Assembly: GCA_963664705.1 (NCBI GenBank)
Contig: OY761556.1
Coordinates: 5,920,001-5,984,000 of the forward strand
DNA: 64,000 nt
Source: Acidobacteriota bacterium
GTDB lineage: Bacteria > Acidobacteriota > UBA6911
Reading direction: 5' to 3'
The translations under genes and the position numbers were made by a program. Positions 3,086 to 53,845 of the stretch are shown here, in pieces (position 1 is the stretch's first letter; each line of letters begins with the position of its first letter). Below the pieces are notes generated by a model that worked only from the letters and a program-made list of their open reading frames with translations, was not told the origin of the DNA and did not search any database.

Positions 3086-3535
3086 TCAGGGATTAAACCG
3101 CGCCCCTCGCATCAGGTGGATGCAGAAACCTATGGCTACAGCAATTAGCGGTAGCATGATTAGGGAAAGCAGTCGGGTAGCCAAACGGACATTCGGCTTA
3201 TTGACGTTGTCGAGCGCCCACGACAGTAGTGGGAGCATCGCAACCACCCACACTACATATTCCACCAGGTCGGGATGGTACTTTCCCTGGAAGGACTCTA
3301 TCAATTCCATGGCTCCGATGGTGAGAGAGGCAATCAAACCGCCCAGCCATTCCCATCGCTAGGCTGCAATCAATCCGGCAGCAAAAATCGGGAGGCAAAT
3401 GAGCAAAACAGGATCTGGTCGTGTTGGTTGTTGCACCGCCAGATCCAAGACACTCAGTACACCGACAAGCAGAATGACAATGCTGAAGGCGCGCCAGATC
3501 ACACGCACAATGAGACTCATAATCCTGAGTTCCAT
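3086..3535 (-). pseudogene. Small membrane protein interrupted by an in-frame TAG at 3359-3361
   Basis: ORFs 3359..3553 and 3086..3337 share a frame; the joined reading ...GLIAA*RWEWLGGLIAS... is one continuous hydrophobic protein. Confidence 0.6.
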
Positions 3536-8876: not shown

Positions 8877-9392
8877 ATGGCACAAAGAACTTCTTTTGGG
8901 ATTATCGGTTTGCTGCTCGCCGTTACATTGCAGCTGCAGGCAGGCACGGCATCAGTGCAGAAGACAACCTGGGAGGGGCTTTCCATCGTGCTGGGCAAGC
9001 AGGTTACGATTGTAATGCCCGGAGGAACCATCATCAGGGGCAAAGCAAAAGCGGTTGAGCCGGATGCTCTGACCATGCAGGTTAAACAAACAACGGATCC
9101 GATCGCTTATCCCAAAGGCTTTCTGCGTATTCCACGCGAGACATTAAGGGTTTTGCAGCTGCAAACGAAAGGAACCAAGTTTCGGATCATTGGGACGGCT
9201 TTGGGCGCTGTTGCAGGACTGGCTGGTGGGGGAGGCGCGGCTATTGCCATTCAAGGAGGAATCCTAAGCAACAATAATCCTGGGGGAGCCGCTGCGGCTC
9301 TCATTGGGATTACGGCTGTCGGAACGACGGTCGGATACCTGACGGGAGATAAAGGAGATACGCGTTCACTGATTATCGAGATTGTGCAGTAG
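8877..9392 (+). CDS. Hypothetical secreted/membrane protein with Gly-rich hydrophobic C-terminus
   Basis: GGAGGAG RBS before ATG 8877, signal peptide, glycine-zipper-like helices. Confidence 0.75.
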   Translation: MAQRTSFGIIGLLLAVTLQLQAGTASVQKTTWEGLSIVLGKQVTIVMPGGTIIRGKAKAVEPDALTMQVKQTTDPIAYPKGFLRIPRETLRVLQLQTKGTKFRIIGTALGAVAGLAGGGGAAIAIQGGILSNNNPGGAAAALIGITAVGTTVGYLTGDKGDTRSLIIEIVQ

Positions 9393-9479
9393 AAACGTTC
9401 TCTTCCAACAGTTATTTCTTTGAACTGGTATATGAATTGAGGCATGTGGTTTAATCATCGCTATAGACGAGGTGTTTTG

Positions 9480-9716
9480 ATGGATAGGGCGGGAAGATTC
9501 AAAAAGGCCAAGAAAGATGACGGCAGTCAGTATATCGGAATGGGTGTCGGTCTTGGGCTTGCTATCGGAGCAGGAGTCGGCACAGCCATTGGAAATATTG
9601 CCATCGGTATAGGCTGTGGCCTGGCGCTCGGGATCAGCCTTGGGTCTCTGATGGCGGGGAAAGCAAAACGGGCGGCAGACAAAACACGAGCAAATCTTCC
9701 CGGTTCAAATTCGTAG
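9480..9716 (+). CDS. Small glycine-zipper membrane protein
   Basis: GAGGTG RBS; GMGVGLGLAIGAGVG...GLALGISLG; last codons lie inside repeat unit 1. Confidence 0.65.
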   Translation: MDRAGRFKKAKKDDGSQYIGMGVGLGLAIGAGVGTAIGNIAIGIGCGLALGISLGSLMAGKAKRAADKTRANLPGSNS

Positions 9717-10880
9717 TAGATTAAATCCTAGGTTTATATTCTTTCCTGCTTCTGGGAAGCACGTTGGTTCCTGAACCATCCCAGGCTGGTTGTTGATTAG
9801 TTTTTGTATTTGAACCGCGAAGACCTCGAAGACCGCAAAGAATTATTGGATCATTTTGCTGCTGGGCAATGAGATAGAGAGATGGATAGGAAAGAAGTTG
9901 AGCATCATATTGTCGATTCCGCGGTGCCTAATGTATGAAGCATCAAGGATGGAATCCAGCGCATGATCTGGCGAGAACGATAACCGCAAAACCTGCAATA
10001 ATATTTTCCTTCGCGGTCTTTGAGGTCTTCGCGGTTAATGGGGTTACTGATTCGGCCAAGTCAGGGGACAAAACACGAGCAAATCTTCCCGGTTCAAATT
10101 CGTAGTAGATTAAATCCTAGGTTTATATTCTTTCCTGCTTCTGGGAAGCACGTTGGTTCCGGAACCATCCCAGGCTGGTTATTGATTAGTTTTTATATTT
10201 GAACCGCGAAGACCTCGAAGACCGCAAAGAATTATTGGATCATTTTTGCTGCCGGGCAATGAGATAGAGAGATGGATAGGAAAGAAGTTGAGCATCATAT
10301 TGTCGATTCCGCGGTGCCTAATGTATGAAGCATCAAGGATGGAATCCAGCGCATGATCTGGCGAGAACGATAACCGCAAAACCTGCAATAATATTTTCCT
10401 TCGCGGTCTTTGAGGTCTTCGCGGTTAATGGGGTTACTGATTCGGCCAAGTCAGGGGACAAAACACGAGCAAATCTTCCCGGTTCAAATTCGTAGTAGAT
10501 TAAATCCTAGGTTTATATTCTTTCCTGCTTCTGGGAAGCACGTTGGTTCCGGAACCATCCCAGGCTGGTTGTTGATTAGTTTTTGTATTTGAACCGCGAA
10601 GACCTCGAAGACCGCAAAGAATTATTGGATCATTTTGCTGCCGGGCAATGAGATAGAGAGATGGATAGGAAAGAAGTTGAGCATCATATTGTCGATTCCG
10701 CGGTGCCTAATGTATGAAGCATCAAGGATGGAATCCAGCGCATGATCTGGCGAGAACGATAACCGCAAAACCTGCAAAAATATTTTCCTTCGCGGTCTTT
10801 GAGGTCTTCGCGGTTAATGGGATTACTGATTTGGCCAAGTCAGGGGACAAAACACGAGCAAATCTTCCCGGTTCAAATTC
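9678..10880. repeat. Tandem repeat, 3 near-identical units of 389/390/389 bp plus the start of a fourth
   Basis: GACAAAACACGAGCAAATCTTCCCGGTTCAAATTC starts at 9678, 10067, 10457 and 10846; units differ by a few SNPs and one T indel; a degenerate continuation runs to about 11005. Confidence 0.97.
9813..10036. mobile_element. MITE-like unit with ~30-bp inverted repeats enclosing a GxxExxY-like gene remnant (repeated in each tandem unit)
   Basis: Left AACCGCGAAGACCTCGAAGACCGCAAAG; right end reverse-complements to AACCGCGAAGACCTCAAAGACCGCGAAG; interior 9882-9983 reads MDRKEVEHHIVDSAVPNV*SIKDGIQRMIWRER*. Confidence 0.55.
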
Positions 10881-11023
10881 ATAGAGAATAAATCCCGGAA
10901 GTCGGAGCCCCCTGGGAGCGCAGCTTCCATATTCCCTGGCCCATATTCTTCCCTGCTTCTGGGAAGCACTTTGGTTTCCGGACCATCCTGGGCTGGTTCT
11001 TGGCTGAGTCCAGGCGGCTAGCC

Positions 11024-14000
11024 TCATCCACGCCGTTTTTTCATAACCCGGCGAATTGCCCATCCGATACCATCGGGCTGTACAGGTTTCTCCACAAATT
11101 CAGTAATTCCCTCGAGCGTTCCTCTAACTTCGCGCGCGGATTTGGCAAAGCCGCTGCACAGCACTAATGGAATGGTCGGCCGCAGTTCATAAATCAGGTG
11201 AGCCAGATCTGTGCCCGTCATTTTGGGCATCGTCAAATCGGTTACGATCACGTCAAAATCATCCGGGTGAAGTTGAAAGTAGTTCGCCGCTTCCAAGGCA
11301 TCGGAGAAGGCCGTCACTTTATAGCCGAATCGTTGCAGCCCCGTCTGATTAATCTCCACAATTGCTTTTTCATCGTCCACGAAAAGGACGCGTTCTGTGC
11401 CCGAGGGAATCATGGCTGTGTCCGTATCCGGCGATTCTGACTCTGCGTTGATACAGATGGGGAAAAACAGGTCAAATCTTGTTCCTTTGCCCAACTCACT
11501 CGAGACGCTGATGGCACCCGCATGTTGGCCGATAATGCTATGAACAATGGCGAGTCCCAATCCGGTCCCTTCGCCGGGTTTTTTGGTAGTAAAATAGGGT
11601 TCGTAAATTCTTTGCAAAGTTGCCTCGCTCATGCCGCTCCCGTTGTCGCTCACGCCAATCACTGCGTGCATGCCCGGTTTCAGAGGAGGATGCGCTGAGG
11701 CCTCGCGGGAAGACAGATTTCTTTCCTCGAGGGAAATTTCGATTTGGCCGCCGGTCTCTCGCAATGCATGATAAGCATTGGTGGTAAGGTTCAGAAGCAC
11801 CTGATGGATCTGAGTGGCATCTGCCAGTACCGGGCCACACGATGAAGCCAGCCGGTGTTTTATCTCGATATTCGCAGGGATTGAGGCTCGCAGCAGGGTT
11901 AGTACCTCCGTGATAATCGTCGGAAGCCTCAGCGGCTGTTTTTCCCCCTCGGTTTGTCGACTGAAAGTAAGGATCTGTTTGACCAAATCTTTTGCTCGTG
12001 TACATGCCTTCAGTATTCCGCCAACCTCCGCTTTGACGTTTTCATCATCCGGCGCATCTCCCTGGATTAGTTGGGAAAAGCCTATGACGACACTCAGAAT
12101 GTTATTGAAGTCGTGAGCAATGCCGCCGGCCAGTGTGCCGATTGCCTCCATTTTCTGAACATGGCGCAATTGTGCTTCGAGTTGTTTGCGTTCGGTCACA
12201 TCTCGAGCGATGCTGTGAAGATATTGCTTGCCATCGATAAGCACACGGTGATGTCCGAATTCCATGTCCAATCTCCGGCCATCTTTTGTATAGATCACAG
12301 TCTCGTCCAGTATGTCCTCGCCGGATAGAACTCGACGCTGGATTTCCTCGAACCTGACAAGATTGGTATCTCTATTCAAATCCGGGCCCCGCATGGTCAG
12401 CAGTTCATCCTTTGAATAGCCGGTCATTCTGACGGCCGCTTCGTTCACATCCATAATCATCGAATTGGCATCACTGATCATGATTGCGTCCCGTGATCCC
12501 TCAAAAATCGCCTTCTGCCAGTCCATTGCCTTCCGACGCTCTTCCTCCGCATTTTTTCTCTCCGTGATATCGCGGTCTATCCCGCGATACCCGGAAAAAT
12601 TGCCTTGCGCATCCCAAATAGGAACTCCGTTTGTTTCGAGCACAACCTCCCGCCCATCTTTGTGCAGGTTGATATTCTGCAATCCCGAGAAGGGAAGACG
12701 GGAGCTTTTGAATACCTTCAATAGCAGAGATACCCGGTACGCTTCTTCCACAGGCATCAAGTCGAATGGGCTTTTTCCAATCACTGCTTCAGGTTCATAT
12801 CCCAAGAGGTCCTTTATCTTGGGGCTCACATAGGTGTAGATCCCGTCCGCATTCACTTCCCATACCAGGTCACTGGTGGTCTCCACGAGAGCTCGGAATT
12901 GTCGTTCTCTATACCGCAAAGCCTCCTCAATCTCTCGGCGGTCTGTAATATCACTCAGTGCCCAAATTGAACCTTCCTCCAGGTTCCCTGAGAGTGCCTG
13001 TCCTGTAAGGCTGCACCAAATGAGGGAGGCATTCTTTTTCCTCATGGGGGTTTCAATGGTATAGGGTAGTCCCTTTGCGAGTTGGGGATACCCATCCTCC
13101 TGAACCCGGAGATAGTCTTCAGAGTTTGAATACAAAATCAAAGTGTCCTGGCCGGTCAATTCCTCTGCCGCATAGCCGAATATCTCCGCAAAAGCAGGAT
13201 TTACCCACTGTATTTTCCTGTTTTTCAAATGACATATCCCCATGCTTATGGTGTTGAGGATCGTTCTTTGTTCATTTGCGAGCTGCCGGACCTGTTCCAT
13301 CGTATGCTTGTGTTCCGTGATATCGAGATGCACTCCCATGGTACGATGAGGTTTGCCGGAGGAATCCCGGGAGACAAGCTTTCCACGATCAAGAACCCAG
13401 ACCCAGGATCCCGATTTGTTTCGGATTCGATATTCCGCGCTATAGTGTTCCGTTTTCCCATTCAGATGATTGGAGGCAGCTCTCTCGACCTCCTGCAGAT
13501 CATCAGGATGGATGAGTGCATTGAAATTCTGCAGTGTCGGCTCAAACTCTCCGGGCTGGTAACCCAGATTTTCCAGCCATCCTTCGCGGTCAATGACCTC
13601 GCCGGTTTGATTATTCAGATCCCAGCTGGACATACCTGCGGCTTCAAGAGCAAGCTTAAGTCTCTCCCTGGATTCATTGGCTATGGCCTCGGCCCTTTTG
13701 CGCTTGGAAATGTCTCGAATATTCATCACCACGCCTTTAACCCCCGGATCCTGGAGCAGGTTGGAACCCACTGCCTCGAGATGCACCCAGTTTCCGTTAC
13801 TATGTCGATAGCGATATTCATACCTGGCAAGCCCGTTCGGTTGCTTCATTACTTCGCCCAAAGCTATTATCGCGCCCTCCCGATCGTCCGGGTGAATACG
13901 ATCAACTCCAACCGAGCCGATCAACTCCTCGGGCTTGAATCCCACAATTCTTTCGATGGGGCCGCTTATATCGGTCAAAATGCTCGTTTCATCAACTATG

Positions 14001-53573: not shown

Positions 53574-53845
53574 GTATTTGTGGAATTCCAGATTTCAGAT
53601 TCCAGATTCCAGATCAAGGCCGGGAAATACTTACTGGGAGGGGCTGCGCCCCGGCTACGGTTGCACGGTATTTGTGGAATTCCAGATTTCAGATTTCAGA
53701 TTCCAGACCAAGACCGGGGAATACTTACTGGGAGGGTTGGCGTCCCGACTACGGTTGCATGGTGTTTGTGGAATTTCAGATTCCAGATTTCAGATTCCAA
53801 ACCAAGGCCGGGGAGCACTTACTGGGGAGCGCCGCCGTCCGCCCA
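53574..53845 (+). repeat. Tandem array of three ~94-bp units
   Basis: Units start at 53574, 53668 and 53762: GT(A/G)TTTGTGGAATT + ATT(T/C)CAG heptamers + CCGGG..ACTTACTGGG.. tail. Confidence 0.9.

Follow-up and report, generated by a model that had tools for sequence, protein, structure and literature searches.

Probable movement and multiplication of gene-less GxxExxY cassettes, in the manner of miniature transposons, in an Acidobacteriota genome

Bacterial MITEs (miniature inverted-repeat transposable elements) derive from insertion sequences, of which they keep the terminal inverted repeats with the coding part deleted; they occur in many copies and are presumed to be mobilised in trans. 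The intervening sequences of 23S rRNA enclose a small open reading frame (ORF), of the S23p/PF05635 cargo family, inside a long inverted-repeat stem, and for these sequences, as for repetitive extragenic palindromic (REP) sequences, roles as terminator, mRNA stabiliser or RNase III target have been proposed. One precise and one variable end are known from one-ended transposition (Tn3 family, IS91) and from long interspersed nuclear elements (LINEs), the insertions of the latter being accompanied by target duplications of variable, sometimes considerable, length and by microhomology at the 5' junction. Here we analyse an array of hairpin-forming elements at positions 9678-11005 of a 64,000-nucleotide stretch of an Acidobacteriota genome (GTDB lineage UBA6911; assembly GCA_963664705.1, contig OY761556.1, positions 5,920,001 to 5,984,000 of the forward strand; hereafter the window), in which each repeat unit holds the gene-less remnant of a cassette of the GxxExxY family (TIGR04256/PF13366/PDDEXK_3).

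Two further systems and the family itself should be introduced. REPINs form ordered clusters that consist of tandem repeats of the element plus flanking sequence, and in the available part of the source these hairpin-plus-flank clusters are reported without an explanation (PMC3116915). The small gene of an Ssn nuclease is accompanied by a specific repeat of its own (NTS/SRM), which is present in hundreds of copies (PMC11893778, available part). GxxExxY/PDDEXK_3 is a large family whose function is listed as unknown, and the accessible portion of the 2012 PD-(D/E)xK survey gives it one table row (PMC3424549). In the literature searched, GxxExxY cassettes are nowhere described as mobile DNA; PMC8934634 treats GxxExxY, but not, in the portion accessible, its mobility, and searches of that literature on MITEs in Acidobacteria, on intervening sequences and on one-ended transposition and target-site duplication yielded nothing on this element.

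The reading that we favour, with a probability of about 0.7, is that of a gene-less GxxExxY cassette that inserted with a long target duplication and was then amplified by unequal recombination. Tandem Repeats Finder (TRF) reports a single array at 9678-10895, with a period of 389, 3.1 copies and 98% matches, and no other array of comparable size in the 64-kb window. Three full units (389, 390 and 389 bp, 98% alike) span 9678-10845, each with private changes, namely 2 substitutions in unit 1, 2 substitutions and an extra T in unit 2, and 3 substitutions in unit 3. They are followed by a partial fourth unit, a' (10846 to ~11005), whose initial 35 nt equal the unit start exactly; beyond these, 56 nt at 87.5% identity and a 39-column insertion are found, and the cassette is missing. 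Since positions 1-114 of unit 1 have the window locus as their sole match when the 6.89-Mb single-contig genome is searched with BLAST, and positions 115-388 have dozens of matches, the unit is composed of ~114 bp of local flank (a) and a 275-bp element bounded by inverted repeats (E). The array, which occupies the gap between two convergent genes, has the order a E a E a E a'.

The inverted arms of each unit are 28 nt long (AACCGCGAAGACCTCGAAGACCGCAAAG / CTTCGCGGTCTTTGAGGTCTTCGCGGTT), 93% complementary and 168-169 nt apart. Folded as RNA, the stem of the element continues into its outer ends and reaches a minimum free energy of -96.5 kcal/mol (z = -4.2), which was equalled by none of 200 shuffles. 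Between the arms lies a reading frame (9882-9983, with the ATG at 9882) that translates as MDRKEVEHHIVDSAVPNV*SIKDGIQRMIWRER*. The original prediction had described this architecture well: the three tandem units with unit-specific single-nucleotide changes, the degenerate fourth unit without cassette and the inverted repeats around the frame are all present, and the peptide that it quoted is exact.

Concerning the descent of the element, a six-frame profile search found three full TIGR04256 genes in the genome, one of which has arms of the window type and encodes 126 aa on the minus strand (genome 2163940 to 2163560). The cassette around this gene served as reference; its 541 nt run from 2164010 to 2163470 on the reverse strand of the genome, with the ATG at reference position 71 and the stop at 451. 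With TIGR04256 the intact protein reaches 135.2 bits (cut-off 35) and with PF13366 125.7 bits (cut-off 22), and it retains the G-x-x-E-x-x-Y motif together with D67/E77/K79; across 24 aligned sequences G24/E27/Y30, D67, E77 and K79 are invariant or nearly so. Its AlphaFold model (predicted local distance difference test, pLDDT, 96) finds weak neighbours in the PDB with Foldseek, which are PD-(D/E)xK nucleases (lambda-exonuclease-like, Hjc, Cas4; best E = 9.9e-3), a match informative on the fold class only, and a sequence search for solved structures gave 0 matches at E <= 1.

Aligned to the reference, the window element retains positions 13-114, 160-181 and 408-508 at 81-91% DNA identity. Two internal deletions removed codons ~16-30 and ~38-112, which held G24/E27/Y30, D67, E77 and K79, so that the GxxExxY motif and the catalytic residues are gone from the window copies. 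The remnant opens with codons 1-15, after which a piece of codons ~31-37, now out of frame, leads to a stop; codons 113-126 and the original stop close it, and its final 13 residues are identical, 13/13, to residues 114-126 of the intact protein. With three reference segments kept and this C-terminal identity, the element is almost certainly what had been proposed at the outset, an internally deleted derivative of a GxxExxY cassette. As to the half-peptide test suggested along with that proposal, the TIGR04256 hidden Markov model (HMM) gave no match at the window remnant at E <= 0.01 in the six-frame search of the whole genome, the half-peptides thus being too short for an HMM test. The window copies are remnants and not members of TIGR04256/PF13366, and the case for their GxxExxY origin rests on DNA homology, the HMM alone being blind to them.

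The element belongs to a family of 28 loci in this genome, the window and 27 sisters, which hold 31 arm-bounded cassettes and 14 unpaired arms; an intact gene is found in 1 of the 31. Over 14 aligned copies the best conserved columns are those of the arms and the right end. Among the 30 cassettes that are not the reference, the right breakpoint lies at reference position 408 in 11, which are spread over 9 loci, and at position 410 in 2 more. Additional nested deletions mark sub-lineages, and both deletions are common to the window and to loci 1525 and 5507. Breakpoints shared by dispersed loci mean that the deleted form multiplied after it had been deleted; they are to be expected if the element is non-autonomous, but not if the copies decayed independently. 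The element has very probably spread as a non-autonomous unit, and the MITE-like offspring foreseen by the original prediction can be recognised in these 28 loci and their common breakpoints.

The insertion footprint is seen in the flanks. Same-strand, locus-specific direct repeats of 20-118 nt border the element or array at 13 of the 28 loci, compared with 1 of 287 random control sites, and at 7 of these 13 (the 90-aa ORF of the window counted) a neighbouring long ORF has its stop inside the gene-side repeat copy, which preserves the end of the gene. The 81-nt repeat of locus 5237 is formed by the 3' end of a conserved gene, and two relatives (G043 and G006) have this segment in a single copy. 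Locus 3371 has the order a E a E a, with a of 111 nt, and in G006 its flanks are 140 nt apart and hold one homologue of the 111-nt a and no element. A gene-carrying element in another species (L030, in genome G021) has a 52-nt flank repeat as well as terminal inverted repeats of 12 nt (CCCGACTTGACC...GGTCAAGTCAGG). We infer that the flank repeats arose during insertion. For locus 4682 an empty site was not obtained, its flanks matching relatives on separate contigs only, and locus 5507 gave right-flank matches only.

The right end of the element is precise and the left end fuzzy. At nine repeat-bounded loci the distance from the right end (...GGTCAAGTCAG/G, on the gene's 3' side) to the start of the flank repeat is -2 to 12 nt, while on the left -3 to 81 nt are left over, and homology to the left module of the long form starts at 1 to 107, differently in almost every locus. 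At the left junction of locus 1525 target and element have 9 nt in common (CAGGTTCCA), and in the window the target (a') and the left end of the element are similar across the junction. Motifs of 24 nt that resemble the right end (GGTTACTAATTCGGTCAAGTCAGG-like) also occur alone, far from arms, near 1230860, 2537608, 6059411 and 6304351; these four may be solo ends or a related mini-element.

Amplification is common in the family. TRF finds arrays at 7 of the 28 loci and two further loci have two cassettes each, which gives 9 loci with at least two; the local amplification originally noted for the window, with its three units, is therefore repeated in six other arrays of the genome. A partial flank copy closes five of the seven TRF arrays, namely those at 3371, 5548, 6544 and the window and also, judged from its 2.4 copies, the one at 1489; none was seen in the 5193 and 6889 arrays. 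Such terminal partial copies fit a primary a-E-a structure that grows through unequal homologous exchange. For the window array, the stretch of 35 nt over which a and a' are identical would suffice as substrate, and it is rather probable that its array was formed by unequal recombination. The likely history of the locus is that the element inserted and duplicated ~114 bp of its target, and that recombination between the duplicated flanks then gave three copies.

Several observations weigh against this history and should be set beside it. Flank repeats are missing at 15 of the 28 loci, and the scatter of the left end is partly made of carried-along pieces of a neighbouring element copy. The comparison with empty sites in relatives, which the original prediction had recommended, bore out the single segment at loci 5237 and 3371 and failed at the window itself, whose left flank (8900-9716) was matched in 0 of 29 same-genus genomes; to read a' as a target duplication is then to argue from the other loci, and a' is only 87% like a and has an insertion. 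The largest family array (G000:C1:5193399-5195103; 7 cassettes, 250-nt period, right-end type GTTATCGAAAGCTCTTTCAT...) has a 25-nt spacer that is absent outside the array and no outside flank repeat, and a spacer limited in this way indicates that at least some arrays grew by exchange between elements and not between flanks. The copy number at the window comes from one assembly, short-read contigs breaking at 9707 and 10851 without spanning the array, and the locus-specific depth is roughly 2-4x that of the flanks in short-read runs that may be the source sample. A hand count of element orientation against replication direction gave no bias (~8:8 and 5:6 on the two replichores). Finally, the moving enzyme is something that we infer, the cutting or binding of these repeats by a GxxExxY protein being predicted only.

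The cassette layout is a trait of the GxxExxY family. All three intact GxxExxY genes of the genome lie between inverted arms of ~9-nt period, the arm word differing from gene to gene. Across the phylum, gene-flanking inverted repeats were found at 18 of 32 TIGR04256 loci (E <= 1e-3) and at 0 of 58 shifted controls, the arms being runs of words such as CACAGAG, CGCGGAG and CACGAAG, in agreement with the short-period repeats that the original prediction had named for GxxExxY flanks. The window element family was matched in 11 of 40 other genomes searched. Elements with an intact gene and with the same arms and right end are present in this genome (G000) and in two other species of the genus (L025 in G005 and L030 in G021), as had also been anticipated, and in some relatives these arms enclose intact genes that are 87-92% identical.

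A second arm family shows the same pattern of a gene with gutted copies: at L001 (G000:C1:4470813-4474157; locus 1412-2355) another intact GxxExxY gene lies between CCACGAATT-word arms, and behind it come two tandem copies with internal deletions (207 nt present 3 times, with spacings of 240 and 229). Words of yet another arm family, of the CACGAATTA type, adjoin CGCGAAGAC-type elements at 2163394-2163477, 2164235-2164270, 5508109 and 6544544, and at the intact-gene locus they form its 36-nt flank repeat; cassettes of different families thus nest or abut.

Because the arms co-vary with the genes, the intact nuclease is the obvious candidate for the enzyme. In the mechanism that we propose, insertion would begin at the precise right end and finish imprecisely on the left, and a widely staggered break that is filled in, or copying from the fixed right end, would duplicate the target. 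The 126-aa nuclease would recognise the 9-nt-period arm words or the ends and supply the cut, and movement is predicted to depend on the intact nuclease gene that this cassette family has at another place in the genome. Movement driven by the nuclease is a tentative suggestion, to which we would give somewhat less than even odds. A wider proposal, which on present evidence we consider doubtful, is that GxxExxY cassettes would form a distinct class of mobile element whose sole gene is the 126-aa PD-(D/E)xK nuclease, and which would enter gene 3' ends by one-ended copy-in from the precise right terminus GGTCAAGTCAGG, with an imprecise left end and 20-118 bp of target duplicated, thereby preserving the host gene and seeding RecA-type amplification.

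Other origins of the array have to be weighed against insertion followed by unequal exchange. The element could be a passive palindrome, a hairpin without enzyme at which stalled forks and template switching make copies, flank duplications and arrays, with GxxExxY as mere cargo. Microhomology at left junctions (the 9 nt of locus 1525 and the similarity at the window junction), nested internal deletions, duplications of varying length (20-118 nt) and a strong stem are all in keeping with it; the right end, however, is precise to 1-2 nt at 9 loci, long-form elements have 12-nt terminal inverted repeats, each of the three intact genes has its own arm word and arms flank the gene at 18 of 32 loci across the phylum. 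These four features favour specific recognition over generic slippage, and we regard the passive origin as unlikely. The fixed end being on the 3' side of the gene, the long and variable target duplications and the microhomology at 5' junctions would also suit a retroposition-like process, in which target-primed synthesis, starting at a nick, would copy a sense transcript that ends at the right end and yield a fixed 3' end and variable 5' ends like those of LINE and SINE insertions. A single reverse transcriptase of group-II-intron-like sequence is present in the genome as its only RVT_1 match (G000:C1:5755258-5756676, a 472-codon open frame); by reading alone it resembles the reverse transcriptase/maturase of a group II intron. 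This gene, however, lies ~170 kb or more from the nearest element locus and, as far as reading shows (a domain scan was not made), lacks an endonuclease domain, the elements have no A-tail or other 3' tag, and the matching terminal inverted repeats of the long-form copies are a DNA-transposon trait, so that the reverse-transcriptase route, weakly supported, is a quite improbable one.

If instead a full GxxExxY gene had stood at each locus and eroded there independently, with no short element having moved, many different deletion breakpoints would result, and these are indeed observed; the one breakpoint common to 11 of 30 cassettes at 9 dispersed loci, together with the lack of the element in relatives at two loci, already disfavours such decay in place, which we take to be very improbable. 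Hardly more credible is an expansion of a single unit by the assembler, for which the failure of short-read contigs to span the array might speak: every unit differs from the others by substitutions of its own, the single-contig genome has six more arrays of this family, and the raised depth mentioned above points the same way, though it may not be independent evidence. A role of the triple hairpin as terminator, mRNA stabiliser or RNase III target, which would be compatible with insertion and amplification of the cassette, finds some backing in the strong predicted stem and in the position of the array between convergent gene ends. We think it improbable, as Rfam 15 gives 0 matches at E <= 1 (window 9000-11600), no T-tract follows the stems of the units, terminator-like matches being confined to a', and differences in the arms between copies are, by eye, uncompensated on the other arm.

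The features of the locus are collected in Table 1.

Table 1. Features at and around the array, in window coordinates.
Feature	Position	Strand	Basis or remarks
90-aa glycine-rich ORF	9444..9716	+	ORF list; final 39 nt (9678-9716) begin the repeat unit
Flank copy a1, locus-specific, unit positions 1-114	9678..9791	+	BLAST of unit 1
Element copy E1, gene-less GxxExxY cassette	9792..10066	+	arms, BLAST, alignment to reference
E1, left end	~9792		
E1, left arm	9813-9840		
E1, remnant	9882-9983		
E1, right arm	10009-10036		
E1, right end	10066	+	...GGCCAAGTCAGGG
Collapsed GxxExxY frame	9882..9983	+	translation, retained reference segments, C-terminal identity
Flank copy a2	10067..10180	+	unit alignment
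Element copy E2	10181..10456	+	arms 10202-10229 and 10399-10426
Flank copy a3	10457..10570	+	unit alignment
Element copy E3	10571..10845	+	arms 10592-10619 and 10788-10815
Trailing, older flank copy a'	10846..11005	+	35 nt identical to a, remainder 87.5%, no cassette
Convergent PAS/histidine-kinase gene, 1188 aa	11024..14590	-	ORF list

Elsewhere in the window a second, smaller tandem repeat (53574-53826; period 94, 2.7 copies, 89% matches) has a unit with runs of CAGATTT/CAGATTC, which may be an arm of another hairpin-cassette family. In short-read run X2 the contig depth over 9300-11300 is 26.1 to the left of the array and 13 to the right, a difference that may reflect a mixture of strains.

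Compared with the systems described at the beginning, the family has in common with MITEs the inverted repeats, here shared with a gene-carrying parent, the internal deletion of the coding part and the many dispersed copies that go back to a deleted ancestor; mobilisation in trans is presumed here as well. It differs from them in that no DDE or other known transposase is involved, in having flank repeats of 20-118 nt that vary with the locus where MITEs have short target-site duplications of fixed length, in its one fuzzy end and in its frequent tandem arrays. The small ORF enclosed by an inverted-repeat stem recalls the 23S rRNA intervening sequences, whereas the cargo family is a different one and 0 of the 28 loci examined is in an rRNA gene. 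One precisely defined end with a variable opposite end is as in Tn3, IS91 and LINEs, and variable, long target duplications with 5'-junction microhomology as in LINEs, but the element is without an HUH, DDE or reverse-transcriptase gene.

The likeness to the REPIN/RAYT system, as far as the available part of its description goes, extends to dispersed extragenic hairpin-forming inverted doublets, to a single-copy enzyme gene flanked by its own repeat type and to tandem clusters that include the flank, here those of the window and of the six other TRF arrays (PMC3116915). The gene, however, encodes a 126-aa PD-(D/E)xK protein here and an HUH Y1 transposase in RAYT, and the short elements of the present family are visibly deletion derivatives of the gene cassette, with long flank duplications. 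A RAYT route finds no support in this genome, its only Y1_Tnp match (1439920) having no family arm within ~49 kb. With Ssn nucleases the family shares the association of a small nuclease gene with many copies of its own specific repeat; Ssn, in contrast, is a GIY-YIG superfamily member and its substrate is single-stranded DNA, and the NTS/SRM repeats, which did not arise from the gene by deletion, are described, in the part of the source available, as modulating transformation and not as mobile (PMC11893778).

Taken together, GxxExxY cassettes probably move about and increase in number much as miniature transposons do. The genome analysed here is an unusually complete natural experiment, with one intact cassette, ~30 deleted descendants and their shared breakpoints, filled sites along with element-less relatives at two loci, and repeated tandem amplification. 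For a family whose gene is often flanked by inverted repeats, it offers a testable mobile-element model with defined ends and arm words, and an unusual insertion footprint of long, variable target duplications at gene 3' ends. If the model is true, a long duplication that both preserves the gene and seeds amplification would explain arrays such as that of the window, and it would offer a simple cause for hairpin-plus-flank clusters of the REPIN type, in which long flank duplications would provide the homology for unequal exchange.

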